NCBI GenBank assembly: GCA_964355075.1
Contig: CAYHCF010000002.1
Coordinates: 16,480-80,479 of the forward strand
Length of the DNA stretch: 64,000 nt
Source of the DNA: an uncultured Chitinophaga sp.
Lineage (GTDB): Bacteria > Bacteroidota > Bacteroidia > UKL13-3
Direction of reading: 5' to 3'
Of this stretch, positions 25,240-49,956 are shown piece after piece (the stretch's first letter is position 1; every line of letters starts with the position of its first letter). Made by a program: the position numbers and the translations under genes. The notes beneath the pieces were generated by a model, which saw only the letters and a list, made by a program, of their open reading frames with translations, did not search any database and was not told where the DNA came from.

Positions 25240-26544
25240 ATGAGCAAAGGACATCAAGAGGCAATTAAAGAAAATAGCATGGTTATCCAAAAGGAGATGC
25301 TTGCCAAACAATTTAAGGAATTAAGTACTGCGAGTGAACTTGGCAAAAAAGTTGTTTATACTTTTGTTCCGGGAAACCTTACCGAACTTATTCTATCATT
25401 TGACATGCTACCGGTGTACCCCGAGATCAATGCCTTGCAGTCGGGTATGCGAAAAAAATCTGCTGATTATATCCGCGACGCTGAAAAGGTAGGATACTCA
25501 GAAGATGTTTGTACTTACGTAAAATGCGATGTAGGAATGATGTTGAACGGAAATATTGGTCCAACAGGAGAAAAAATTCCGCCACCCGATTTATTATTAT
25601 TGAGCTATACAGGTTGTTTTACTTTTTTAAAATGGTTTGAGAATCTCGAACGCTTGTATCCGGGAGTACCGGTTGCCATGTTGCATACACCCTATCAGGA
25701 AGATGGTAAAATATCTCAGGATCAAATTGACTACATGGTTAAACAAATGAAAGAGGAAGTGATACCAAAAATGGAAATGGTATCCGGGCAGAAATTTGAT
25801 ATGGACCGTCTTTCAAAGATGCTTGTAAATTCAGCAAAAGCTGAAGACTTACTGGTAAAGATTTTAGAGAGTGCAAAACAGGTGCCATCACCTATTGATG
25901 CTTATTTTGCCGGCGTATATTATATAGGCCCGATTTTCACGGCTTTTAGAGGTACCGAAGAAGCTGTAGAATATTATACTGAACTATGGAATGAGGTTCA
26001 GGAAAGAATGAGATTGGGTTTAGGCCCTATTACTCCGGAAGGGGAATTGAAAGAAGAGAAATTCAGGTTGGTTGTTGAAGGACCTCCTAACTGGACTAAT
26101 TTCAGAGAGTTTTGGAAAATATTTTATGATATGGGAGCTGTTATAGTTGCCTCATCCTACACCAAAGTGGGTGGTGTTTACGATCAGGGGTTCAGACATG
26201 ACAGTAAAGAACCGCTTGAAAGTTTAGCAAAATATTGTATGGGGGTTTACACCAATCTGAACCTGCCACAACGTGTGGACATGCTTGAAAAATATGTAAA
26301 AGATTATAAGGCCGACGGTTTTCTTATCAATTCCATAAAAAGCTGCAACTCCTTCTCTGCAGGCCAATTAATGATTATGAGAGAGATTGAACAGAGGGCT
26401 GGAGTGCCTGTTGGATTTATCGAATCTGATTTGGTTGACCCCAGGTACTTTTCCTATGCCAATATTAAGAATAGATTAGAATCGTATTTCCAGATGTTGG
26501 GTCAGCGGAAAATCATAATAAAACAGGTAGAAGCAGAAGTGTAA
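25240..26544 (+). CDS. bcrB: Benzoyl-CoA reductase (class I) subunit B-like protein
   Basis: 434 aa BCR/HAD-family protein (VVYTFVPGNLTELILSFDMLPVYPE..., CTYVKCD). Second position in the four-gene set; size close to BcrB/BadE. Confidence 0.6.
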   Translation: MSKGHQEAIKENSMVIQKEMLAKQFKELSTASELGKKVVYTFVPGNLTELILSFDMLPVYPEINALQSGMRKKSADYIRDAEKVGYSEDVCTYVKCDVGMMLNGNIGPTGEKIPPPDLLLLSYTGCFTFLKWFENLERLYPGVPVAMLHTPYQEDGKISQDQIDYMVKQMKEEVIPKMEMVSGQKFDMDRLSKMLVNSAKAEDLLVKILESAKQVPSPIDAYFAGVYYIGPIFTAFRGTEEAVEYYTELWNEVQERMRLGLGPITPEGELKEEKFRLVVEGPPNWTNFREFWKIFYDMGAVIVASSYTKVGGVYDQGFRHDSKEPLESLAKYCMGVYTNLNLPQRVDMLEKYVKDYKADGFLINSIKSCNSFSAGQLMIMREIEQRAGVPVGFIESDLVDPRYFSYANIKNRLESYFQMLGQRKIIIKQVEAEV

Positions 26545-26712
26545 TTGGTAATCGGTAATTGGTAATTGGTAATTGGTAATTGGTAATCGGTAATTGGTCC
26601 CTTCGACAAGCTCAGGATGACAAATTTTGTTGTCATAGTGAGCCTGTCGAACTACGGTAATTGGTATTTGGTAATCGGTAATTGGTAATCGGTAATTGGT
26701 AATTGGTAATTG
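26541..26712. repeat. Composite repeat: 8 x GTAATYG heptamers, a 50-nt imperfect palindromic core, then 8 x GTAATYG heptamers
   Basis: Heptamer arrays at 26541-26596 and 26657-26712 lie in direct orientation. The core hairpin has arms 26602-26623 and 26630-26651 (22-nt arms, 3 mismatches). The first heptamer overlaps the bcrB-like stop codon. Confidence 0.9.
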
Positions 26713-39171: not shown

Positions 39172-41169
39172 ATGGAATCGTTAAAAACAGTTGGTGTTGT
39201 GGGAGCAGGTACGATGGGTTCAGCCCTCACTCAGAAATTTGCCCAGGAAGGATTTAAGGTTATTCTGGCAGACAGGACAATCAGCTTTGTAGACAGAGGA
39301 ATTAATGGCATAAAATCGAGTTTACAGGAAGGAATTCAAAAAAAGGTTTTTACAGAAGAACAAGCTGGTAAAACCCTCAGCAATATTTCCGGCACAGAAA
39401 ATCTGGAAGACTTAAAAGCTTGTGATATTGTTATTGAAGCCATATTTGAAAATTTTGATGCAAAAATTGATTTGTTTAAAAACCTATCAAATGTGTTATC
39501 CGATACTTGTATCATCGCAACCAATACTTCTTCTTTTTCAGTTAATGAATTAAGTGAATATGTAAAAAATCCTGAACGCTTTATTGGCTTGCATTATTTT
39601 TACCATGCGGCAAAAAATCGTCTGGTGGAAATTATCCCGAACAAAAAAACTTCTGCAGGTGTTATCGAAAGTGCCCGGCGTTTTTCGTTTATTTCAGGGA
39701 AAGATGCCATTTATTGTAAGGATTCCTACGGTTTTGTGGTAAACCGTTATTTTGTTCCCTGGTTGAATGAAGCTTGCAGGCTTCTGGAAGAAAATATTGG
39801 AAATATTCCTACCATTGATTCCGTTTGTTCAGAAAAATTTGGTGTAAGCATGGGTCCATTTGCATTAATGAATGCCACCGGAGTTCCCATTACCTATCAT
39901 TCCCAAAAAACACTTGAAGTATTTGGTGAACTCTATAAAACCTCAGAAATATTAAGGATTCAAACTGAATTAAACCAGCCATGGAGCCTTGAAGGAGAAG
40001 TATTGGCTGATGATGTGATCAGAAAAGAAATAGCGGAGCGGATGATCGGAATTGAATTTTTGGTATGTTCACAATTGCTTGAAGAAGAAACCTGCTCAGC
40101 CACCGAAATAAATCGTGGTGCCCGCATCGGTTTAAAATGGAGATCCGGCCCCATTGAATTAATGAGTAGATATGGCGAGGCAGAGACTCAAAGATTCGTA
40201 TCTTTAATAGCTAAAAGATACAATACCCCTGTTCCAGCTACGGTGGATTCAAGTTTCTGGAAACAAGCGTATGTATTATATGAAAAATGGGGTAAAAATG
40301 TTACCCTTACCATGTCGAGACCTGAAGATCTGAACGCACTTAATGAAGAGGTAATCAAACAACTTTTGGAAAAATTTACCATAGCTGATACAGATCCTGA
40401 AGTTGAAAATATCTTTTTGGTTGGTTCCGGAAAAGCCTTTGTTGCCGGCGCCGATATTAAATTTTTTGTTAAACACATGAAGGCGCTTTCCTTCGATAAA
40501 ATTGAAACCTTTACCCGATTCGGTCAGGACGTACTTGAAAGGATTGACCAATCAAACAAAAAGGTTATTGTTATTTTAAATGGAATGGCCTTAGGTGGAG
40601 GCTTAGAGCTGGCATTATGTGCCGACCTGATTGTGGCACTTCCAGGTGCAACTATGTCATTCCCGGAAACCGGTATTGGAATCTATCCGGGTTTGGGAGG
40701 AACACAGAGAAGCGCAAGAAGAATTGATAAAGCATTGAGTAAATACATGATTCATACCGGAAAGACATTAAGTGCAAAAGATGCTTTTGAAATTGGATTA
40801 GTAGATAAGGTCATTTCTGTTGAAGAAATGTTCGATTTGATTTATGGAAATATGGAATTACCTGCTCCTAATAAACCTGTCCTGAATGAAAAATGGCTCG
40901 CCATCAAGAATTTTTTCGAGGATCATAAGCTCGCTGAATTGCTCTCGCATCAGATTCACGATACACTGATTTCTAAAGAAGAAGCGGATCGCATTTGTAA
41001 AACATTGGCATTTAAAGCGCCTCTTGCTTTGCAATATGCCGACAAATTAATTGAAGATGCAAAAGGCTGCGCAGATGAATTGAATTATTTAACCAAAATT
41101 TTCAGCACGCAGGACGCATTGCTGGGATTGACTTCAATTGGAAAGCGGGTTGAATTTAAAGGGCACTAG
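39172..41169 (+). CDS. Bifunctional 3-hydroxyacyl-CoA dehydrogenase (N-terminal) / enoyl-CoA hydratase (C-terminal)
   Basis: 665 aa. VGVVGAGTMGSALTQ Rossmann and 3HCDH C-domains, then a crotonase fold (GSGKAFVAGADIKFF, LGGGLELALCAD, ETGIGIYPGLGGTQR). Confidence 0.85.
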   Translation: MESLKTVGVVGAGTMGSALTQKFAQEGFKVILADRTISFVDRGINGIKSSLQEGIQKKVFTEEQAGKTLSNISGTENLEDLKACDIVIEAIFENFDAKIDLFKNLSNVLSDTCIIATNTSSFSVNELSEYVKNPERFIGLHYFYHAAKNRLVEIIPNKKTSAGVIESARRFSFISGKDAIYCKDSYGFVVNRYFVPWLNEACRLLEENIGNIPTIDSVCSEKFGVSMGPFALMNATGVPITYHSQKTLEVFGELYKTSEILRIQTELNQPWSLEGEVLADDVIRKEIAERMIGIEFLVCSQLLEEETCSATEINRGARIGLKWRSGPIELMSRYGEAETQRFVSLIAKRYNTPVPATVDSSFWKQAYVLYEKWGKNVTLTMSRPEDLNALNEEVIKQLLEKFTIADTDPEVENIFLVGSGKAFVAGADIKFFVKHMKALSFDKIETFTRFGQDVLERIDQSNKKVIVILNGMALGGGLELALCADLIVALPGATMSFPETGIGIYPGLGGTQRSARRIDKALSKYMIHTGKTLSAKDAFEIGLVDKVISVEEMFDLIYGNMELPAPNKPVLNEKWLAIKNFFEDHKLAELLSHQIHDTLISKEEADRICKTLAFKAPLALQYADKLIEDAKGCADELNYLTKIFSTQDALLGLTSIGKRVEFKGH

Positions 41170-41483
41170 GAGATGAGAGATGGGAAATGAGAGATGAGAA
41201 ATGGGAAATGGAATTCGAAAAACCCTGAAGGGGTTTTATAATAATATCCACGGGTTGCTTTGTACAACGAAGCTTTAGCGTAGTTGTGCAACCCGTGGTA
41301 TGAAATGAGCAAAAGAAAGGCGCGGCACAAGAATTTATGAACAGTAAACAGAATTTAAGCCGCGCAATCTGCACAGATTAAAAAAGTGTGGTTAGTCGAA
41401 TTGGACGCTAATCTTAGGATAGAGATGGGAAAGGAAATGGGAGATGGGATGTCTGATAGTTATCGGGAGGGAAATGAGAAATA
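41170..41483. repeat. Composite repeat: GARATGR heptamer arrays flanking a core of about 210 nt with three hairpins
   Basis: 6 heptamers at 41170-41211 start right after the stop codon. A degenerate array lies at 41422-41483. Hairpins: 41219-41237 (7 bp), 41248-41258/41288-41298 (11 bp) and 41320-41326/41359-41365 (7 bp, GC-rich). Confidence 0.8.
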
Positions 41484-41556
41484 AAAATGATAATTATTGG
41501 AATATCGTTGTATAGTAGCCCTTCTGGCTATTTTTTTTCGGTTGAATGAAAATGAA

Positions 41557-42615
41557 ATGAATGATGTATTAAAGATATCGGTTAATCATGCGAACAAAGC
41601 GATAATAATCTGGCTACTTACCGGATGTGTGTTGATATACATCATGGTAGTTGTGGGTGGCGTAACCAGATTGACAAACTCCGGATTATCAATGGTTGAA
41701 TGGAGTCCGGTGGGATCAATACCACCTGTTAATGAACAGGAATGGATGATTCAGTTTGAAAAATATAAGCAATCTCCCGAATTTAAAATTGTAAATAAAG
41801 AATTTACATTACAGGATTTCAAAGGAATATTTTGGTGGGAATACCTGCATCGGTTTATTGGAAGGTTTATCGGAATCGTTTTTATCATACCCTTTTTGTA
41901 TTTTTTAATACGCAATAAATTCCCAAAAGGTTTTACAAAAAAAATGTTGATCCTGTTATTTATCGGATCATTGCAGGGATTTTTAGGATGGTTTATGGTA
42001 AAAAGCGGGTTGCAAAGCAATCCTCATGTAAGTCATTACCGACTTGCCTTGCACCTGATTACCGCATTTACAGCGTTTGGATTTTCGTTTTGGTATGCCC
42101 TGGATTTGATTTATCCAAAAATTGAAATTGAGGAATATTCATCCTTAAAAAAGACAAGTTTGGTATTATTGCTTACCATAACACTTCAGATTGTATACGG
42201 AGCCTTTGTGGCAGGATTGAAAGCAGGATATTTATTCCCAACTTTCCCTAAAATGGGCGATCACTGGATTGCACCTGAAGTAACACTGTTGAATCCTATT
42301 TGGAGAAATTTCTTCGAAGGTCAGGCGGGAGTTCAGTTTATTCACCGAACAATAGCATACCTGATTTTATTTTTAATCGTGCTTTTTTATATAAAATCAC
42401 TAAAATACAACCTCACTCCGCTTCTGAAGAACCTCTTTCTGTTTATTACTGGCATTTATTTTGTTCAATTTTTACTGGGAGTTTCCAATATCCTGTTTGG
42501 TGTTCCGATAATAATTGGGATTCTGCATCAAACAGGTGCTTTCTTCCTGTTTTCATCGGTATTGTTTCTAAACCATAATCTTACAAATAACGCTTCCTTA
42601 AACAAGAAGGCATAA
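41557..42615 (+). CDS. ctaA: Heme A synthase (COX15/CtaA family)
   Basis: Polytopic membrane protein with the conserved His-containing motifs LHRFIGR and IHRTIAY. ATG at 41557 is preferred over the tracked upstream TTG at 41497. Confidence 0.75.
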   Translation: MNDVLKISVNHANKAIIIWLLTGCVLIYIMVVVGGVTRLTNSGLSMVEWSPVGSIPPVNEQEWMIQFEKYKQSPEFKIVNKEFTLQDFKGIFWWEYLHRFIGRFIGIVFIIPFLYFLIRNKFPKGFTKKMLILLFIGSLQGFLGWFMVKSGLQSNPHVSHYRLALHLITAFTAFGFSFWYALDLIYPKIEIEEYSSLKKTSLVLLLTITLQIVYGAFVAGLKAGYLFPTFPKMGDHWIAPEVTLLNPIWRNFFEGQAGVQFIHRTIAYLILFLIVLFYIKSLKYNLTPLLKNLFLFITGIYFVQFLLGVSNILFGVPIIIGILHQTGAFFLFSSVLFLNHNLTNNASLNKKA

Positions 42616-42619
42616 AGTA

Positions 42620-43234
42620 ATGGAACCTCAGGATAAATATAAGGTTATTGTTCTCATGGCGGGTAAATCATCAAGGTTTGGACAGCCTAAGGCTTTTTTA
42701 CCATTTAATAAAGACAGGAACTTTATACAAAACCTCCTCTTCCAATACAGGGAAGCAGGTATTGAGGAAATTATTTTGGTTACTAATGTATCCGTACTTA
42801 AAGAACTGGAAAAACAATTACAGGAAAATTTGTTTGATGGCTCTTTAAAAATTGTTATCAATCCTGAACCCGAATCGGATCGGTTTTTCAGTCTGAAGCT
42901 GGCCTTGAAAAATATGGATATCTGCTGTTCTGCCTTTATCCAAAATATTGATAACCCATTTATATCTTCTGAATTAATCAGTAAGATGAGAAATAAAATC
43001 AAACCCGGGAAATACGTTGTACCAAGCTTTCTAGGCAAAAAGGGTCATCCGGTTTTATTATCAAAAGAGATCCTTCAATACCTCTCAACAATAATGTCTG
43101 ACAGTGAAAACCTGAAAGAAATTTTGGCTGAATTTGCATTTGAAGAAGTATTTGTTGATGATGAAAGCGTTCTGGCTAATATCAACACAAAAGAAGATTA
43201 TTTCAACTATTTCAACTATGCAATCCCTGTTTGA
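42620..43234 (+). CDS. mocA: MobA-like nucleotidyltransferase, probable molybdenum cofactor cytidylyltransferase
   Basis: 204 aa. VIVLMAGKSSRFGQPKAFLPF (NTP_transf_3 motif). Context next to xdhC and Mo-hydroxylase genes. Confidence 0.65.
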   Translation: MEPQDKYKVIVLMAGKSSRFGQPKAFLPFNKDRNFIQNLLFQYREAGIEEIILVTNVSVLKELEKQLQENLFDGSLKIVINPEPESDRFFSLKLALKNMDICCSAFIQNIDNPFISSELISKMRNKIKPGKYVVPSFLGKKGHPVLLSKEILQYLSTIMSDSENLKEILAEFAFEEVFVDDESVLANINTKEDYFNYFNYAIPV

Positions 43235-44042
43235 ACGATTACACCTTGCGCTCGAAAAAAGAGAACAGGTAGCATTATGTACCGTTGTTGAAACATCGGG
43301 ATCAACCCCCTTAAAAGCCGCTTCAAAAATACTAATTTGGTCCGATGGGAAATCTTCAGGAACCATTGGAGGAGGTAATGTTGAATTTCAGGTCATTGAG
43401 GATGCTATTCAGCAAATCAGGAAAAAGGAATCAAAACTGATCGATTATTCATTATTAAAACAAAACATGTGTTGCGGAGGTACTATGAAAATTTTTATCG
43501 AGCCCCAGAAACCGATTAAACAATTAATTATTTTCGGTGCAGGGCATATCGGAAGCAATGTGGCCTTTTTTTCACAAAAGCTTTCTTATAAGATTGTACT
43601 GGTTGATGAACGTAAAGAGATGCTTGATAAAGTTGATTTGCCGGATATAAAAAAAATATTATTGCCCCATAAAAAAGCTTTTGCAGATATTACATTCGAT
43701 GGCGAAACCTATATCATCATTTGTACACACCAGCATGAATATGACAGGGAGATTTTGGCTTATTGTGTAAAACAGCAAACCGCTTATTTGGGAATGATTG
43801 GAAGTATGCGAAAAGTTCTGGTAACCAGAAAGCGGTTTTTGGATCAAAAACTATGCAGCAAAAAACGATTAGATCAGGTTGATATGCCCATGGGATTTGA
43901 TATTGGCCAGAACGGCCCCGAAGAAATAGCACTGGGTATTGTGGCAAAAATTGTGGCCGTATCTAATCATAAAGAGATTATTCAAACAACAAAATCAGAA
44001 AAATATGAAGAAGCGACTTTCGATAGTGACGGGTGCTGCTAA
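43218..44042 (+). CDS. xdhC: XdhC/CoxI family molybdoenzyme maturation factor
   Basis: ATG at 43218 (MQSLFERLHLALEKREQVALCTVVETSGSTP...) overlaps the mocA end by 17 nt. IFGAGHIG Rossmann-like C-domain. Confidence 0.8.
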   Translation: MQSLFERLHLALEKREQVALCTVVETSGSTPLKAASKILIWSDGKSSGTIGGGNVEFQVIEDAIQQIRKKESKLIDYSLLKQNMCCGGTMKIFIEPQKPIKQLIIFGAGHIGSNVAFFSQKLSYKIVLVDERKEMLDKVDLPDIKKILLPHKKAFADITFDGETYIIICTHQHEYDREILAYCVKQQTAYLGMIGSMRKVLVTRKRFLDQKLCSKKRLDQVDMPMGFDIGQNGPEEIALGIVAKIVAVSNHKEIIQTTKSEKYEEATFDSDGCC

Positions 44043-44748
44043 AGGTATTGGTAAATCAATTGCATTGCAGTTGTGTGCTGATGGATTTTTTGTAGTATTG
44101 ATAGATGTTGACAAGGAGGCAGGCATAAGTCTCGAGAAAGAGATAGGGAGTGATTTCAGCCATTTTATTCATGCCAATATCAATGATGAAAAATCGGTTC
44201 AGCAATTATTTGAAGAAGCAAAAAATAGCTACGGGTCGATTGATTTACTCGTAAATAATGCGGGTATAATCCGGGATAAAATGATCTGGAAAATGAGTCT
44301 GGATGAGTTTGATGAAGTTGTTTCGGTAAATTTGAAAGGAACCTGGATCATGTGCCGGGAAGCAGCAAAAATAATGAAAGAACAAACTTTTGGCAGAATC
44401 ATAAATATAGCCTCCAGAGCCTGGCTGGGTAATCCAGGACAATCGAATTATGCAGCCTCAAAAGCCGGTGTAATCGGGCTAACCAGGGTTCTTGCCCTGG
44501 AATTAGGAAGATACAATGTGTTGGTAAATGCTGTTGCCCCCGGCTTAATTGATACGCCTCTTACCCAAAATTTAGAAGCTTCGGTAAGAGAGAAGCTGAT
44601 ACAGGCTCAACCCACAAAAACTATTGGAAAACCGGAAGACGTAGCCAACGCAGTTTCCTTTCTGGCAAATGAAAAAACACAATTTATTACCGGACAGGTA
44701 TTGTATGTTGATGGCGGTAAAAATATTGGAGCAAATATGAGCTTATGA
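44005..44748 (+). CDS. Short-chain dehydrogenase/reductase (FabG-like)
   Basis: In-frame ATG at 44005 (MKKRLSIVTGAAKGIGKS). NNAG and the catalytic S...YAASK are present. Confidence 0.85.
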   Translation: MKKRLSIVTGAAKGIGKSIALQLCADGFFVVLIDVDKEAGISLEKEIGSDFSHFIHANINDEKSVQQLFEEAKNSYGSIDLLVNNAGIIRDKMIWKMSLDEFDEVVSVNLKGTWIMCREAAKIMKEQTFGRIINIASRAWLGNPGQSNYAASKAGVIGLTRVLALELGRYNVLVNAVAPGLIDTPLTQNLEASVREKLIQAQPTKTIGKPEDVANAVSFLANEKTQFITGQVLYVDGGKNIGANMSL

Positions 44749-47639
44749 AGCAACTCAATTTAAAAATAAACGAAAAGCAATTTAATTTTCTGGTGGGGGA
44801 ACATGAAATGCTCTCCACTGTGATAAGAGAGAAAGCCGGATTAACCGGAACAAAAATTGGATGTGAACAAGGAAGTTGTGGAGCCTGTACGGTACTGGTA
44901 AATAATGAGCCTGTATTGAGCTGTATCACACCTGCCCTTAAATTTGCTGACGCCGGAATCACTACTATTGAAGGGCTTTCCCAAAATGGTGAACTTCATA
45001 AACTTCAGGAAATATTTGTTGAAAAAGGGGCCATTCAATGTGGATTTTGTACACCGGGAATGGTGATCACATCCCTGGATTTTGTCCATAAACATCCCAA
45101 TCCAACTATAGAACAAATCAAAGAAGGACTTTCGGGTAATTTATGCAGGTGTACAGGTTATAAGAAAATAATTGAAGCAGTTGCCGAATATGCGAAAGAA
45201 GTTAACGGTTCACCATTGGCCGTTCACAGTTTAGAATCATCCAATTTAAAATCAGTAGGAGTTGGGCGACCCTACATTGAAGCTTCAAAAAAAGTACAGG
45301 GTTTGGCAGAATATGCGGATGATATCAAATTAAAAGGCGCCCTTCAAATAAAATTTGTACGAAGCATTTTCCCGCATGCCCGAATTGAAAATATTGACAC
45401 ATCGGATGCTCAGAAACTGGAAGGAGTTCGATATATCGCTACCGGAAAAGAATTGCCCATCACTTTCGGTGTGCTTCCCATTTCGCAGGATGAAAATGCG
45501 ATTGCCATTGAAAAGACAAGATATATTGGTGAAATAGTTGCTGCCGTAGCTGCCGATACCGAAGAGATTGCCAAAGAGGCCTGCAAACTGATTAAAGTAA
45601 AATATCTTCCAATCAAAGAATTTCTGTCCATTGAGGATTCATTAAATGATGCAGGTGAAAATGAAAAAATCCACCCGGAACATGGCAAGCAGAATAACAA
45701 TATTCATAAAAAAGCGGAATTGCGTTTTGGGGATCAGGAACAAGGACTGAAAGATGCCGATATTATCAGTGAAATGGACTTCCGTTTTGAAGGCGTTAAC
45801 CATGGTTTTACCGAACCCCATTCAGCATCGGCATTTTGGGATGAAAATGGGTTGACTTTAATTTCGGCAACTCAGGTTACCCATTATTTACACAGGGCGC
45901 TGGCCAAAACCATGGAAGTTCCATTGAGCCGGGTTCGTGTAATAAAACCTCATGTAGGTGGTGGCTTTGGCGGTAAAGGAGATCCATTCCCGCACGAAAT
46001 TATCGTCGCCCATATAGCCCGAAAAACAGGAAAACCTGCGCATGTTCGCTTATCAAGAGAAGAAGTTTTTATAACCAATCATGGACGACATCCTTCAAAA
46101 ATGACCATCAAGTTGGGCGCTGACCGCAATGGAATTTTAAAAGTTTTGGATGCTGATATCGCCATTGATGGAGGTGCTTATGGAAGTTTTGGTGTTGTTA
46201 CCTCCTATTATAATGGGGTATTGCTTCAGGCTCCCTATAAGCTGGATAACTTTGGGTTCAGAACCTACAGAGTATATACCAATAAACCTCAGTGCGGGGC
46301 TATGCGTGGGCATGGAGCGGTAAATTCGCGCTTTGCCGTTGAATCATTGATTGATGATATTGCACATAAAATTAAAATGGATCCGGTAGAATTACGTATA
46401 AAGAATTTCCTGGATTCAAATACGTTAACAGTGGGTCAATACCGTATCACATCGAACGGAAGCAAAGAATCTATTCTAAAAGTTGCCGGGCAATCAGACT
46501 GGAAGAACAAACATGGCAAAATGGAATCGGGACATGGATTTGGGGTTGGTTGTGGATTTTTTATCAGCGGCAGCGCTTTGCCAATTATCTGGAACGAATT
46601 GCCGCAATCGGTTGTTCATTTAAAAGTAGATTTTGATGGACGTGTTCTGGTCACATCAGGTGCCAATGATATTGGTCAGGGTAGCGATACCATGCTGGCC
46701 ATAATTGTTGCTGAAGTTCTTGGTATTGGAATGGAAAAAATATTTGTAATTGGGGCAGATACCTTGCTCACTCCGGTTGATCTGGGAAGCTATTCGAGCA
46801 GGGTAACCTTTATGGCAGGAAATGCGGCTAAGGATGCAGCAGAAAATTTAAGGGCTGAAATTGCAACTGCTGTAGCACGACGATTTACGATTGACGATTT
46901 ACGATTGACGATTGACGATTTACGATTTGCAACTGACGAATTGCGATTGACGAATTACGAAATACGAATCAGGGATCTTGTAGCTGAAATAAATTTTTCT
47001 GATAACCGGGTATTTTCAAATGATAAAAGTATTGATTTGGGATGGAATGAGGCAATTGAAATTCTGACAGCAAACCGGGGCGCTGTTTCGGTGAGTGGGA
47101 AATACATTTCACCAAAATTAGGTGGTGATTTTAAAGGAGCGGGTGCAGGTTTAAGCCCCTCCTACTCATTTGGAGCCTGTGTGGCTGAAGTTACCGTAAA
47201 CCAACAAACGGGGCATGTTAAAATATTAAATATTTGGGGGGCCCATGATTGCGGTAAAGCACTGAATCCATTGGCTGTGGAAGGACAATTAGAAGGCTCG
47301 TGGCATATGGGAATCGGACAAGCAATAAGCGAAGAAATGCGTTACTATAATGGCTTGCTGGTAAATAATAATTTCCTCGATTATAAAATTCCAACTTCAT
47401 TGGATACCCCGGATATTCATACGAATATGATAGAAACAAATGATCCGGAAGGGCCTTTTGGAGCCAAAGAATGCGGTGAAGGAGCCTTGCATCCTGTAAT
47501 CCCGGCTATTGCAAATGCTATTTTCGATGCAGTAGGAATCAGGATAACCAAGTTGCCCATAAAGAGTGAAGAGGTATTAAATCTTATGAAAGAAAAATCC
47601 GGTTTAATAAATAAAAAGGCGTCTGCCAGTTTAAATTAA
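44745..47639 (+). CDS. Molybdenum hydroxylase, fused [2Fe-2S] small subunit plus molybdopterin large subunit (xanthine dehydrogenase/CoxSL/HcrCA family)
   Basis: 964 aa. GCEQGSCGAC, CGFCTPG and CRCTGY (two 2Fe-2S sites), then GGGFGGKG, a QVTHY region, RVTFMAGNA and KECGEGA (active-site Glu region). Confidence 0.85.
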   Translation: MKQLNLKINEKQFNFLVGEHEMLSTVIREKAGLTGTKIGCEQGSCGACTVLVNNEPVLSCITPALKFADAGITTIEGLSQNGELHKLQEIFVEKGAIQCGFCTPGMVITSLDFVHKHPNPTIEQIKEGLSGNLCRCTGYKKIIEAVAEYAKEVNGSPLAVHSLESSNLKSVGVGRPYIEASKKVQGLAEYADDIKLKGALQIKFVRSIFPHARIENIDTSDAQKLEGVRYIATGKELPITFGVLPISQDENAIAIEKTRYIGEIVAAVAADTEEIAKEACKLIKVKYLPIKEFLSIEDSLNDAGENEKIHPEHGKQNNNIHKKAELRFGDQEQGLKDADIISEMDFRFEGVNHGFTEPHSASAFWDENGLTLISATQVTHYLHRALAKTMEVPLSRVRVIKPHVGGGFGGKGDPFPHEIIVAHIARKTGKPAHVRLSREEVFITNHGRHPSKMTIKLGADRNGILKVLDADIAIDGGAYGSFGVVTSYYNGVLLQAPYKLDNFGFRTYRVYTNKPQCGAMRGHGAVNSRFAVESLIDDIAHKIKMDPVELRIKNFLDSNTLTVGQYRITSNGSKESILKVAGQSDWKNKHGKMESGHGFGVGCGFFISGSALPIIWNELPQSVVHLKVDFDGRVLVTSGANDIGQGSDTMLAIIVAEVLGIGMEKIFVIGADTLLTPVDLGSYSSRVTFMAGNAAKDAAENLRAEIATAVARRFTIDDLRLTIDDLRFATDELRLTNYEIRIRDLVAEINFSDNRVFSNDKSIDLGWNEAIEILTANRGAVSVSGKYISPKLGGDFKGAGAGLSPSYSFGACVAEVTVNQQTGHVKILNIWGAHDCGKALNPLAVEGQLEGSWHMGIGQAISEEMRYYNGLLVNNNFLDYKIPTSLDTPDIHTNMIETNDPEGPFGAKECGEGALHPVIPAIANAIFDAVGIRITKLPIKSEEVLNLMKEKSGLINKKASASLN
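46880..46970 (+). repeat. In-frame array of 13 heptanucleotides (ACGATTK and variants) inside the Mo-hydroxylase CDS
   Basis: ACGATTT/ACGATTG units at 46880-46928, degenerating to ACGAATT/ACGAAAT by 46970. Translated as TIDDLRLTIDDLRFATDELRLTNYEIRI. Confidence 0.9.
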
Positions 47640-47650
47640 GGGGTAATAAA

Positions 47651-48604
47651 ATGAGTGCTGAAAAAATATATCACTATGTAAATACCATTGAGCAAGCTTT
47701 TGAAATGGCAAACCAACATGTGCAAAACTTCAAATATCTTGCTGGTGGTACTGATGTGATGGTTAACCGATTTCAGGGAAATGATGAATCAGGATGTTTG
47801 ATTGATTTGTCCGGAATAAGCGAACTGAAAGAAATTAGCGTACAAGGAAATTATCTAAAAATTGGTACGCTTGTAAAGTTGAATGATCTAAAAAAACATA
47901 ACATAATTACCAAACAATTTCCTAGTCTGATACAAGCTGCAAACGAAGTTGGATCGCCCATTATAAGAAAAGCAGCCACTCTTGGCGGCAATATTTTATG
48001 TGAAAACCGATGTTCCTTTTTTAACCAAAGTGCGTGGTGGCGTGAGGCAGTTGGTTATTGTCTGAAATGTGAAGGAGATGTTTGTATTGCTACCGGAGGA
48101 ACAAAAGCCTGTTTCTCTAAATTTGTTTCTGATACCGCACCGGTATTAGTAAGCATGAATGCGCAAATAGAGGTAATTGATCATGCGGAAAGCATAGACG
48201 AAATAAAGACCATTCCGCTCGAAAGTATCTATACTGGCGATGGAATCAATCCAAGAAATTTGTCTAAAACTGCACTTATCAAAAACATTATTCTTCCTCT
48301 TGCTATAAATTATAAAGTAATATTCAAAAAATTACGTCCCCGAGAAGCGGTTGATTTTACTTCCTTAACCACTGCAGTTTCGCTGGATCAACAAGGAAAA
48401 GTAAAAATTGTTGTAGCGGGTGTTGATCCAAAACCTATAGTAGTTGAAGGTATGATGGCTGATTCTGAGGTACTGATTAAACAAATTCTAAAAAAAGCCA
48501 GAATCGTTGACAATGATTTTTATTCAAGAGCCTATAGAAAAGAAATGATGGGCTTATACCTGAAACAAAGCATGGAGGAGTTAGCGAGAGATGAGACCCT
48601 TTGA
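47651..48604 (+). CDS. Molybdenum hydroxylase FAD-binding (medium) subunit with Cys-rich insertion
   Basis: 317 aa. AGGTDVMV and ATLGGNI FAD_binding_5 motifs. An insertion of about 40 aa (LCENRCSFFNQSAWWREAVGYCLKCEGDVCIATGGTKACFSKF, 6 Cys) sits between GGNI and SDTAPVL. Confidence 0.8.
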   Translation: MSAEKIYHYVNTIEQAFEMANQHVQNFKYLAGGTDVMVNRFQGNDESGCLIDLSGISELKEISVQGNYLKIGTLVKLNDLKKHNIITKQFPSLIQAANEVGSPIIRKAATLGGNILCENRCSFFNQSAWWREAVGYCLKCEGDVCIATGGTKACFSKFVSDTAPVLVSMNAQIEVIDHAESIDEIKTIPLESIYTGDGINPRNLSKTALIKNIILPLAINYKVIFKKLRPREAVDFTSLTTAVSLDQQGKVKIVVAGVDPKPIVVEGMMADSEVLIKQILKKARIVDNDFYSRAYRKEMMGLYLKQSMEELARDETL

Positions 48605-48754
48605 CAAGCTCAGGATGACGAGGGAAATGAGACTATGTCAGTTTGAGCGAAGTCGAAAACTAATAAGCTGTGAAAGCAAATCCTATAAGATTACTGTATG
48701 AAACCGTTTTCGACTTCGCTCAAACTAACAACAAACAATTAACAATTAATCACT
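48588..48754. repeat. Composite repeat: heptamer fragments, shared 'gacaagctcaggatgac' core, 21-bp perfect-stem hairpin and AACAATT heptamers
   Basis: 48596-48619 matches 26598-26620 at about 22/24. Perfect inverted repeat 48640-48660 / 48706-48726. AACAAYW units at 48727-48754. The stop codon of the FAD-subunit gene (48602-48604) lies inside the shared core. Confidence 0.8.
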
Positions 48755-48760
48755 AGTAAT

Positions 48761-49306
48761 ATGACAAATCCAAATATTAAAATCCTGTACGATGAGCACG
48801 AAATAATCGTGAACGCCATTGATGTGGCCAAGCAGATGAAACCATTGCTGGAAAAAAATACTGAATTATATGAAACCATGCTTAGGAAACTGATTCTGTT
48901 TTTCAGAAATTATGCTGATAAATACCATCATTTTAAGGAAGAAGAAATTCTTTTCCCCGAAATGAACAGGCGTAACGAATTATTAGAAGACGGAGTAATC
49001 AAAGAAATGCTTGAGAATCACGCAGATTTTAGGGAAATGATCGGTGACATTGAGAAAAATCTGAATGACCATAATTATGCTAAAGCCAACGAAATTCTTG
49101 TCAAATATACCGAGGCACTGCTCGATCATATCGCAGTTGAAAATGATGAGGTATTCCAGATGGCAGAAAGCATTTTTGATAATGCAGAACTCGAAAAAAT
49201 TGGCTTCCGCTTTATGGATTGCGACCGCGATTTGGGCGAAGCAAAAAAAGAAGAATTAAAAGAAATGACTGCTGAATTGAGACGGGAAATGTTTTTGATG
49301 GATTGA
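48761..49306 (+). CDS. Hemerythrin-like (HHE cation-binding) domain protein
   Basis: 181 aa. YADKYHHFKEEE, ENHADFRE and LLDHIAVENDE His/Glu-rich helices typical of hemerythrin-like domains. Confidence 0.6.
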   Translation: MTNPNIKILYDEHEIIVNAIDVAKQMKPLLEKNTELYETMLRKLILFFRNYADKYHHFKEEEILFPEMNRRNELLEDGVIKEMLENHADFREMIGDIEKNLNDHNYAKANEILVKYTEALLDHIAVENDEVFQMAESIFDNAELEKIGFRFMDCDRDLGEAKKEELKEMTAELRREMFLMD

Positions 49307-49473
49307 GTATGCATTCAGGTCAAATAAGAATAATTTTTCTCAAAGAAAATATGCTGTATTAGCCCCTTAAATAGCTGGACTAAATTATAAAAAAAGTTCA
49401 GTACATTTATCAAAGATACGCACTCATTGATCAATGATTATAAAAGATATTTAGATTTCCATTAATTTTGAAA

Positions 49474-49956
49474 ATGGAATTTGAAATCAGAAAAGTAAAA
49501 AAATCAGACAATTTGTTTCTGGCCACAATGATCAGGGAGGTTTTTGAGGAACACAATGCACCCCATGAAGGAACCGTATTTAGTGATCCAACAACCGATC
49601 ACTTATATGAATTATTCCGTAAAGAAAATTCGGTTTTATGGGTTGCGGAAAAAGGGAATTCTATATTAGGCTGTTGTGGCATTTATCCATTGGAGGGTTT
49701 GAATGAAAACTATACTGAATTGGTTAAATTTTATTTGCCTTCCTCTGAACGTGGTAAGGGAATTGGAAAGGCGTTAATGCAGAAAAGCATTGAATCAGCC
49801 AAAGAACTGGGATACAAATACCTGTATTTAGAAAGCTTACCGCATTTTGCAAAAGCTGTTAACCTGTACGAAAAACTTGGCTTCAATAAATTAGATCAAC
49901 CTCTAGGCAACTCCGGACATGCCACTTGCAATATCTGGATGTCAATGGAATTATAG
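49474..49956 (+). CDS. GNAT family N-acetyltransferase
   Basis: RGKGIGKALM acetyl-CoA binding motif. ATG at 49474 is preferred over the tracked TTG at 49468. Confidence 0.8.
   Translation: MEFEIRKVKKSDNLFLATMIREVFEEHNAPHEGTVFSDPTTDHLYELFRKENSVLWVAEKGNSILGCCGIYPLEGLNENYTELVKFYLPSSERGKGIGKALMQKSIESAKELGYKYLYLESLPHFAKAVNLYEKLGFNKLDQPLGNSGHATCNIWMSMEL

Follow-up and report, generated by a model that had tools for sequence, protein, structure and literature searches.

Genes for a probable two-polypeptide member of the 4-hydroxybenzoyl-CoA reductase lineage beside a benzoyl-CoA island in an uncultured Bacteroidota genome

A molybdenum hydroxylase gene cluster is located at positions 42620-48604 of a 64,000-nucleotide (nt) stretch of DNA from an uncultured member of the Bacteroidota (genome assembly size 3.44 Mb), close to genes of the benzoyl-CoA pathway, and it raises the question of whether the encoded enzyme oxidizes its substrate or removes a hydroxyl group from it reductively. 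This stretch is called the window here; positions are those of the whole window, and the gene run is on the + strand. We consider it likely that the genes encode a two-polypeptide Bacteroidota member of the 4-hydroxybenzoyl-CoA reductase (hereafter 4-HBCR) lineage, which would dehydroxylate 4-hydroxybenzoyl-CoA for the neighboring benzoyl-CoA pathway, and the system is most likely a divergent variant of the known enzyme rather than a novel type of system. What was observed directly is the domain and cofactor-site architecture, the placement in the family and the gene linkage. Beyond an earlier note on this DNA, the present analysis contributes a phylogeny from unbiased sampling, data on how HcrB-like genes and BcrB co-occur across genomes, an orthologue group of the short-chain dehydrogenase (SDR) and a comparison within the genus. 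The five open reading frames (ORFs) listed in the earlier note, mocA, xdhC, an SDR gene, a fused 2Fe-2S + Mo subunit gene and a flavin adenine dinucleotide (FAD) subunit gene, were all found on the + strand, and their domains were confirmed by Pfam and NCBIfam:

42620-43234, + strand: mocA-like nucleotidyltransferase (MobA/MocA-like nucleoside triphosphate transferase; PF12804, E 6.7e-23)
43218-44042, + strand: xdhC, XdhC-type molybdenum cofactor maturation/insertion chaperone, 274 amino acids (aa; PF02625 + PF13478)
44005-44748, + strand: FabG/BbsD-like SDR, 247 aa (PF13561, E 1.2e-64)
44745-47639, + strand: hcrCA, fused gamma and alpha subunits, 964 aa (Pfam Fer2, Fer2_2, hammerhead and MoCoBD_1/2)
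47651-48604, + strand: hcrB-like FAD subunit, 317 aa (FAD_binding_5, PF00941, E 5.1e-32)
47999-48125, + strand: [4Fe-4S]-loop insertion in the hcrB-like gene (gapless alignment to HcrB 117-155)

Inspection of the FAD subunit confirmed the extra six-Cys segment at 47999-48125, which corresponds to residues 117-158 and lies between the GGNI (112-115) and SDTAP (160-164) motifs; its Cys are at positions 117, 121, 137, 140, 145 and 154. The earlier note had related this segment to a loop of HcrB, and when the two proteins were aligned the 36-40-residue insertion matched without a gap that of the Thauera subunit (1rm6_B), which was the top PDB match (phmmer, E 7.6e-39) with 35% identity. In this alignment C121, C137, C145 and C154 correspond to HcrB C122, C138, C146 and C155, which are reportedly the [4Fe-4S] ligands (Unciuleac et al. 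2004). We compared 42 FAD subunits from Bacteroidota, Marinimicrobia, Eisenbacteria, Lentisphaeria, Acidobacteriota, Proteobacteria and one Thermoplasmatota archaeon, and these four were the only Cys invariant across all clades. This conservation pattern independently supports the candidate ligand role of the four residues, whose codons are at 48011-48013 (C121), 48059-48061 (C137), 48083-48085 (C145) and 48110-48112 (C154). The other two Cys are not invariant; C117 is one column off HcrB C117, and C140 is missing in at least one relative.

The insertion is considered real because the genome's own paralogous FAD subunits skip the corresponding part of the HcrB model: the two other xanthine-oxidase-family FAD subunits of this genome (contigs C41 and C17/C19) align to the model over 3-116 and 153-315 and pass over 117-152. 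In the AlphaFold2 model of the FAD subunit the predicted local distance difference test score (pLDDT) was 89.2, and 72-87 in the insertion. The top structural match of this model was again 1rm6_B (template modeling (TM) score 0.87, E 3.1e-28), followed by PaoB and the medium subunit of the Methylobacillus aldehyde oxidase, and PaoB (5g5g_B) was also the second-best PDB match by sequence.

The earlier note had regarded the subunit fusion and the SDR as departures from the hcrCAB layout, and both are real and conserved across the Bacteroidota lineage; gamma and alpha form a single 964-aa ORF, hcrCA, and the fused Bacteroidota proteins span 923-964 aa. Fusion aside, the domain content and order are the same as in hcrC/hcrA/hcrB, with gamma and its two [2Fe-2S] clusters at residues 1-157, a flexible linker at 157-169, and then alpha with Mo bound to molybdopterin cytosine dinucleotide (MCD); the AlphaFold2 model had a predicted TM score of 0.82, and pLDDT of the linker was 36. 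Both [2Fe-2S] motifs are kept (C40-x4-C45-x2-C48-x11-C60 and C99-x2-C102-x31-C134-x-C136), and these motifs, together with the Gln, Arg and Glu that correspond to HcrA Q214, R285 and E726, are present in the window protein and in 26/26 Bacteroidota members. The three residues presumably act in the active site, in line with the conservation seen here. In addition, 19 positions that separate the Hcr superclade described below from the outgroups are conserved (for example Y326, H360, R366, Y521, S522 and Q673 in HcrA numbering), and 175 positions are conserved and identical in the canonical HcrA clade and in the clade of the window protein. The top PDB match of the Mo domain was HcrA (1rm6_A, E 1.3e-166), with the next entry about 210 bits lower, and as a match to the Mo subunit PaoC scored 195 bits versus 560 for HcrA. 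In NCBIfam the Hcr models ranked first for all three parts, with 780.7 bits for TIGR03194 versus 525 for the next family, and the PaoC model NF041671 reached 274 bits against a cut-off of 1180.

We then determined the position of the Mo domain in three trees. Tree 1 contained 83 Mo domains, taken from loci that had been located by the FAD-loop motif, together with E. coli PaoC, XdhA and the genome's own paralogues; tree 2 added 139 full-length representatives (50% clusters) that an unbiased search among 1.84 billion proteins had returned; and tree 3 was an IQ-TREE analysis of 53 rows of unbiased representatives, from which the supports below are given (ultrafast bootstrap/SH-aLRT). The three trees were concordant, and the fused Bacteroidota proteins formed one clade nested among unfused relatives. 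This clade belongs to a larger one, clade II (100/99), that also includes unfused proteins of Lentisphaeria, Marinimicrobia, Eisenbacteria, Emcibacter and one Thermoplasmatota archaeon. The sister group of clade II is canonical HcrA (98/95), and the two form, with an Acidobacteriota-containing group, the Hcr superclade (100/98). The earlier note had named two outcomes that would refute its reading, an insertion that does not align with HcrB and a Mo subunit grouped with aldehyde or purine hydroxylases, and neither was seen; XdhA and the genome's own paralogues fell outside in tree 3, and PaoC fell outside in trees 1 and 2.

The genes around the operon are in favor of an aryl-CoA dehydroxylase that works reductively and supplies a benzoyl-CoA reductase. 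The distance of 1.4 kb to a benzoyl-CoA island given in the earlier note was correct, since 1451 nt separate the end of the fadB-like gene (41169) from mocA. The island upstream is of the Thauera type and complete; it contains bcrCBAD, genes for an ADP-forming acyl-CoA ligase, for one HGD-D-type protein and for a PanE::activase fusion, and further a thiolase, had, oah, dch and the FadB-like gene. We examined the neighborhoods by blastp annotation of 82 loci and by the gene tables of two further contigs. The unit mocA-xdhC-SDR-hcrCA-hcrB-hemerythrin recurs in Bacteroidota, either divergent from bcrCBAD or 3′ of thiolase-had-oah-dch-fadB, and the order in unfused relatives is had-oah-dch-(fadB)-SDR-thiolase-hcrC-hcrA-hcrB. 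Synteny with bcrCBAD and/or had-oah-dch was found in Bacteroidota, Marinimicrobia, Eisenbacteria, Lentisphaeria and Emcibacter, and most loci have one or both of these gene sets alongside. At the genome level, an HcrB-like gene was found in 9 and BcrB in 9 of 119 genomes of the window's own order, with both in 8; in a sample of 401 Bacteroidota genomes the numbers were 5 and 7, with both in 5 and neither in 394. BcrB is present in 12/13 genomes with an HcrB-like gene.

The substrate, the direction and the electron donor would, by analogy, be those of the Thauera enzyme. MocA and XdhC would make and insert the cofactor, HcrCA would hold two [2Fe-2S] clusters and the Mo-MCD active site, and HcrB would bind FAD and an extra [4Fe-4S] cluster through C121, C137, C145 and C154. 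As in Thauera 4-HBCR, electrons would pass from reduced low-potential ferredoxin to the [4Fe-4S] cluster at the surface and from there by way of FAD and both [2Fe-2S] clusters to Mo (the ferredoxin-driven route of the Thauera enzyme is reviewed in PMC12771579). At Mo, the para-hydroxyl group on 4-hydroxybenzoyl-CoA, or on a very similar para-hydroxyaryl-CoA, would be lost as water, and the benzoyl-CoA product would be handed to the class I benzoyl-CoA reductase BcrCBAD and to Dch/Had/Oah, encoded just upstream.

Several observations weigh against this assignment. A [4Fe-4S] loop is also present in PaoB of the oxidative enzyme PaoABC, so the loop alone is no proof of the reductive direction. 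Compared with Thauera HcrA, the window Mo domain reaches 38% identity and its clade 39-45%, whereas the range among canonical HcrA proteins of Proteobacteria is 57-93%, with one exception at 47%, and all three NCBIfam equivalog cut-offs were missed (TIGR03194, alpha, 780.7 versus 994.6 bits; TIGR03195, beta, 199.8 versus 404.6; TIGR03193, gamma, 163.7 versus 257.8). The protein therefore represents an uncharacterized sister lineage and not a proven HcrA orthologue. Moreover, 31 positions are fixed differently in clade II and in the canonical clade (for example R248K, E250D, R283H, P286H, H443F, H459Q and W668H), and some of the differences flank the Mo-site motifs (GGGFGAR-TE to GGGFGGK-GD, and HRGRP to NHGRH), so that the specificity may differ from that of canonical HcrA. 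The physical linkage in one island weakens the argument from co-occurrence, which is supporting evidence and not proof because related genomes are not independent samples and the genes sit in that one island. No member of the benzoate/4-hydroxybenzoate-CoA ligase family was found above cut-off in the genome; the ADP-forming ligase of the bcr operon is therefore likely to be the activating enzyme. Finally, our literature search found no paper on clade II and no characterized member of it.

A rival reading is that the same architecture and reductive chemistry serve another hydroxylated aryl- or heteroaryl-CoA, such as 3,4-dihydroxybenzoyl-CoA, vanilloyl-CoA or a product of the SDR. We regard this as possible but rather unlikely. 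The separate sister clade with its identity of about 40% and its sub-threshold scores, the 31 clade-specific substitutions, which are partly near the Mo-site motifs, and an SDR that is tightly coupled here and absent from canonical hcrCAB loci are what it would lead us to expect; on the other hand, the link with benzoyl-CoA reductase is as strict as expected of a step that forms benzoyl-CoA, the signature residues of the superclade are fully conserved, and the genome has no second, canonical Hcr that could take the role for 4-hydroxybenzoyl-CoA.

It appears quite improbable that the enzyme is an oxidative hydroxylase (dehydrogenase) with a CoA ester or an aldehyde as substrate, whose [4Fe-4S] cluster would pass electrons outward to an acceptor as in PaoABC. 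Such a reading would fit the next-best matches of the FAD subunit, PaoB and the Methylobacillus medium subunit, in which the insertion is at the same site, and the aerobic-respiration genes of the organism, with ctaA in the same gene run. However, the Mo subunit is far from PaoC both in score and in the trees, the N-terminal sequence of the fused protein, MKQLNLKINEKQF..., already belongs to the 2Fe-2S fold and shows no signal ahead of it, and the operon lies among genes of the strictly anaerobic benzoyl-CoA reductase and co-occurs with them. It is more improbable still that the enzyme is impaired or decaying in this genome through invasion by heptamer repeats, which place 28 aa in frame in HcrCA and accompany an altered C-terminus of hcrB. 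The repeat array is indeed absent from G009, a genome of the same genus, and from all other relatives aligned, and G009 also has a different hcrB C-terminus and different intergenic regions on both flanks. Nevertheless, all frames are open, the insertion is at a surface linker where HcrA varies too (residues 561-569) and is modeled as a helical extension, and the cofactor and catalytic residues are all intact.

We next compared the locus with known systems. Thauera aromatica HcrCAB (EC 1.1.7.1; PDB 1RM6/1SB3; HbaBCD in Rhodopseudomonas palustris) shares with it the two [2Fe-2S] clusters, FAD, the four-Cys [4Fe-4S] loop and Mo-MCD with Gln/Arg/Glu, as well as the gene order gamma, alpha, beta and the linkage to benzoyl-CoA reductase genes. 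Unlike the window, in which gamma and alpha are fused, HcrCAB has three separate subunits, and unlike HcrCAB, the window operon has a co-inherited SDR, its own mocA and xdhC, a hemerythrin gene and an uncultured Bacteroidota host. The periplasmic aldehyde oxidoreductase of E. coli, PaoABC (PDB 5G5G), carries an insertion with four Cys at the corresponding site of its FAD subunit; it differs in loop length and Cys spacing, has a distant Mo subunit, and is an exported, oxidative enzyme of three separate subunits, with a Tat signal on PaoA. In the Desulfovibrio gigas aldehyde oxidoreductase MOP (PDB 1VLB/1SIJ), the second-best PDB match of the full-length fused protein (E 8.1e-103), the 2Fe-2S domains are likewise fused directly to the Mo domain, but this aldehyde-oxidizing enzyme lacks an FAD subunit as well as a [4Fe-4S] cluster, and the two types of fusion probably arose independently.

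Ucdh/UcdCFO, the urolithin C 9-dehydroxylase of Enterocloster, was compared by description only. It removes a phenolic hydroxyl reductively at the position para to an electron-withdrawing carbonyl and is the only other xanthine-oxidase-family enzyme shown to perform such a dehydroxylation; its activity needs XdhC and MCD (PMC12771579, PMC12658268). It is approximately 33% identical to 4-HBCR (PMC12771579) and, unlike 4-HBCR, acts on a free lactone and not on a CoA ester. The HcrB-type [4Fe-4S] site is reported not to be common to Ucd and Uxd (PMC12658268). Furoyl-CoA dehydrogenase HmfABC was considered as a possible oxidative relative with the same loop; no paper linking HmfABC to Hcr was found, a review of the field is silent on the point, and the comparison was not used here.

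Two kinds of deviation were seen within the superclade. In the Acidobacteriota loci L038, L051 and L061 the four-Cys loop is kept and Gln occupies the position of the catalytic Glu (HcrA E726). In L048, from a metagenome-assembled genome of Burkholderiaceae, a canonical-clade Hcr appears as a putative gamma-alpha fusion of 947 aa that aligns to window residues 4-949, so the fusion may have arisen more than once.

The genome contains two more loci of the xanthine oxidase family, at C41:20240-23911 and at C17:61736-66325, the latter duplicated on C19; neither falls within the Hcr superclade, and the FAD subunits of both have no Fe-S loop. The C41 locus has three genes in the order small, FAD and large subunit. 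The C17 locus, on the minus strand, has the large, small and FAD-subunit genes, and a 79-aa 2[4Fe-4S] ferredoxin is encoded about 1.3 kb from the FAD-subunit match and 3 kb from the Mo gene. No small 2[4Fe-4S] ferredoxin is encoded in the window, and the genome's only one is that beside the molybdoenzyme locus of C17/C19.

If the assignment is right, many uncultured Bacteroidota of freshwater, soil and sludge can channel phenolic acids into ATP-dependent anaerobic ring reduction, and relatives from Marinimicrobia, Eisenbacteria and Lentisphaeria have the same capacity. Work on this trait has until now dealt mainly with Proteobacteria. In databases the proteins are named "molybdopterin-dependent oxidoreductase" (NCBI) or receive the 4-HBCR name by transfer without any test (JGI), and a biochemical check would settle many annotations at once. 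A natural two-gene 4-HBCR with its own MocA and XdhC could also ease heterologous production, for which Ucdh in E. coli TP1000 is a precedent. The conserved SDR and hemerythrin genes point to parts of the pathway that are still undescribed.

The remaining features of the gene run are the following:

41497-42615, + strand: ctaA, heme A synthase (PF02628, E 1.7e-102; NF045570, 315 bits)
46880-46968, + strand: heptanucleotide (ACGATTK) array in frame within hcrCA (Tandem Repeats Finder, period 7, 11.6 copies)
48761-49306, + strand: hemerythrin-domain protein, 181 aa (PF01814, E 6.7e-15)

Among the accessory proteins, the MocA-like protein, conserved at the operon head in Bacteroidota loci, scored 88.8 bits with TIGR03310 (MocA), under the cut-off of 186, and probably makes the MCD cofactor. 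The SDR had BbsD of the toluene beta-oxidation pathway as its top PDB match (7pcs_B, 9.9e-59), barely above FabG entries, and is probably a beta-hydroxyacyl-CoA dehydrogenase; a BadH-type identity was rejected, since BadH was not among the 25 best NCBIfam matches. In a tree the Hcr-linked SDRs form two groups, and the branching of the window's orthologue group (SH-aLRT 98) mirrors the Hcr tree, which indicates co-inheritance. Canonical proteobacterial hcr loci have no SDR gene at the corresponding position. As a guess, the SDR may make the substrate through beta-oxidation of a 4-hydroxyphenyl side chain. In one Bacteroidota locus a peptidase-U32-family gene lies between the SDR gene and hcrCA (L003:5678-6928). 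The hemerythrin gene is directly 3′ of hcrB in 17/26 Bacteroidota loci, in two further contigs and in G009, and its product may, again as a guess, sense oxygen or protect or repair iron-sulfur centers.

The guess on the SDR can be extended to the conserved super-operon around clade-II Hcr, which could form an undescribed anaerobic route from tyrosine/4-hydroxyphenylpyruvate to benzoyl-CoA, a proposal that we consider doubtful. It would assign to the route the acyl-CoA ligase, the single-subunit 2-hydroxyacyl-CoA-dehydratase-like protein, the PanE-like 2-oxoacid reductase fused to an activase, the FadB-like hydratase/dehydrogenase, the BbsD/FabG-like SDR, the thiolase, Hcr and the class I benzoyl-CoA reductase. 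The 2-oxoacid would be reduced to an aryl-lactate and activated to its CoA ester, radical dehydration would yield p-coumaroyl-CoA, and beta-oxidation by hydratase, SDR and thiolase would give 4-hydroxybenzoyl-CoA for dehydroxylation by Hcr; the Hcr-linked SDR would then be the benzylic 3-hydroxyacyl-CoA dehydrogenase of the side-chain oxidation.

The gene boundaries indicate a compact operon. The start of xdhC was refined to the ATG at 43218 (relatives have 251-274 aa) and that of the SDR gene to the ATG at 44005, which gives a length matching its relatives; each of the two genes overlaps the preceding one, and the SDR stop overlaps the hcrCA start (ATGA). The operon reaches 3′ to the conserved hemerythrin gene and, in this genus, 5′ through ctaA, which ends 4 nt before mocA. 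ctaA is a neighbor in a co-directional run and not a functional part of the enzyme. Its position between the fadB-like gene and mocA, also seen in G009, makes a gene of aerobic respiration an odd partner for oxygen-sensitive enzymes. A promoter and terminator scan of 41000-49600 gave counts not above those of shuffled sequences, with a sigma-70 consensus that is unsuited to Bacteroidota. The FNR-like box TGAYN4RTCA has 9 matches in the window versus 4.8 expected, and paired boxes precede the bcr and plsA-like genes; no such box was found upstream of ctaA/mocA, and the two matches nearby are inside the ctaA and hcrCA coding regions.

The comparison with G009, which has the same gene order including the fadB-like gene, ctaA and mocA, showed differences in repeats and spacers. 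The array at 46880-46968 (about 12 ACGATTK units) adds the 28 in-frame residues 717-744 to HcrCA and is specific to this genome among the Bacteroidota relatives aligned; the repeat-encoded residues were modeled as a helical surface extension with pLDDT 65-82. Gain or loss of array units in a number not divisible by three would shift the frame. The spacer between the fadB-like gene and ctaA (41170-41496) is 328 nt in the window genome versus 22 nt in G009, and that between hcrB and the hemerythrin gene (48605-48760) is 156 nt versus 8 nt. In the former, heptamer runs of the GARATGR type surround a palindrome (ccacgggttgc...gcaacccgtgg), and this looks like copies of a small repeat-flanked element also noted earlier at 26541-26712.

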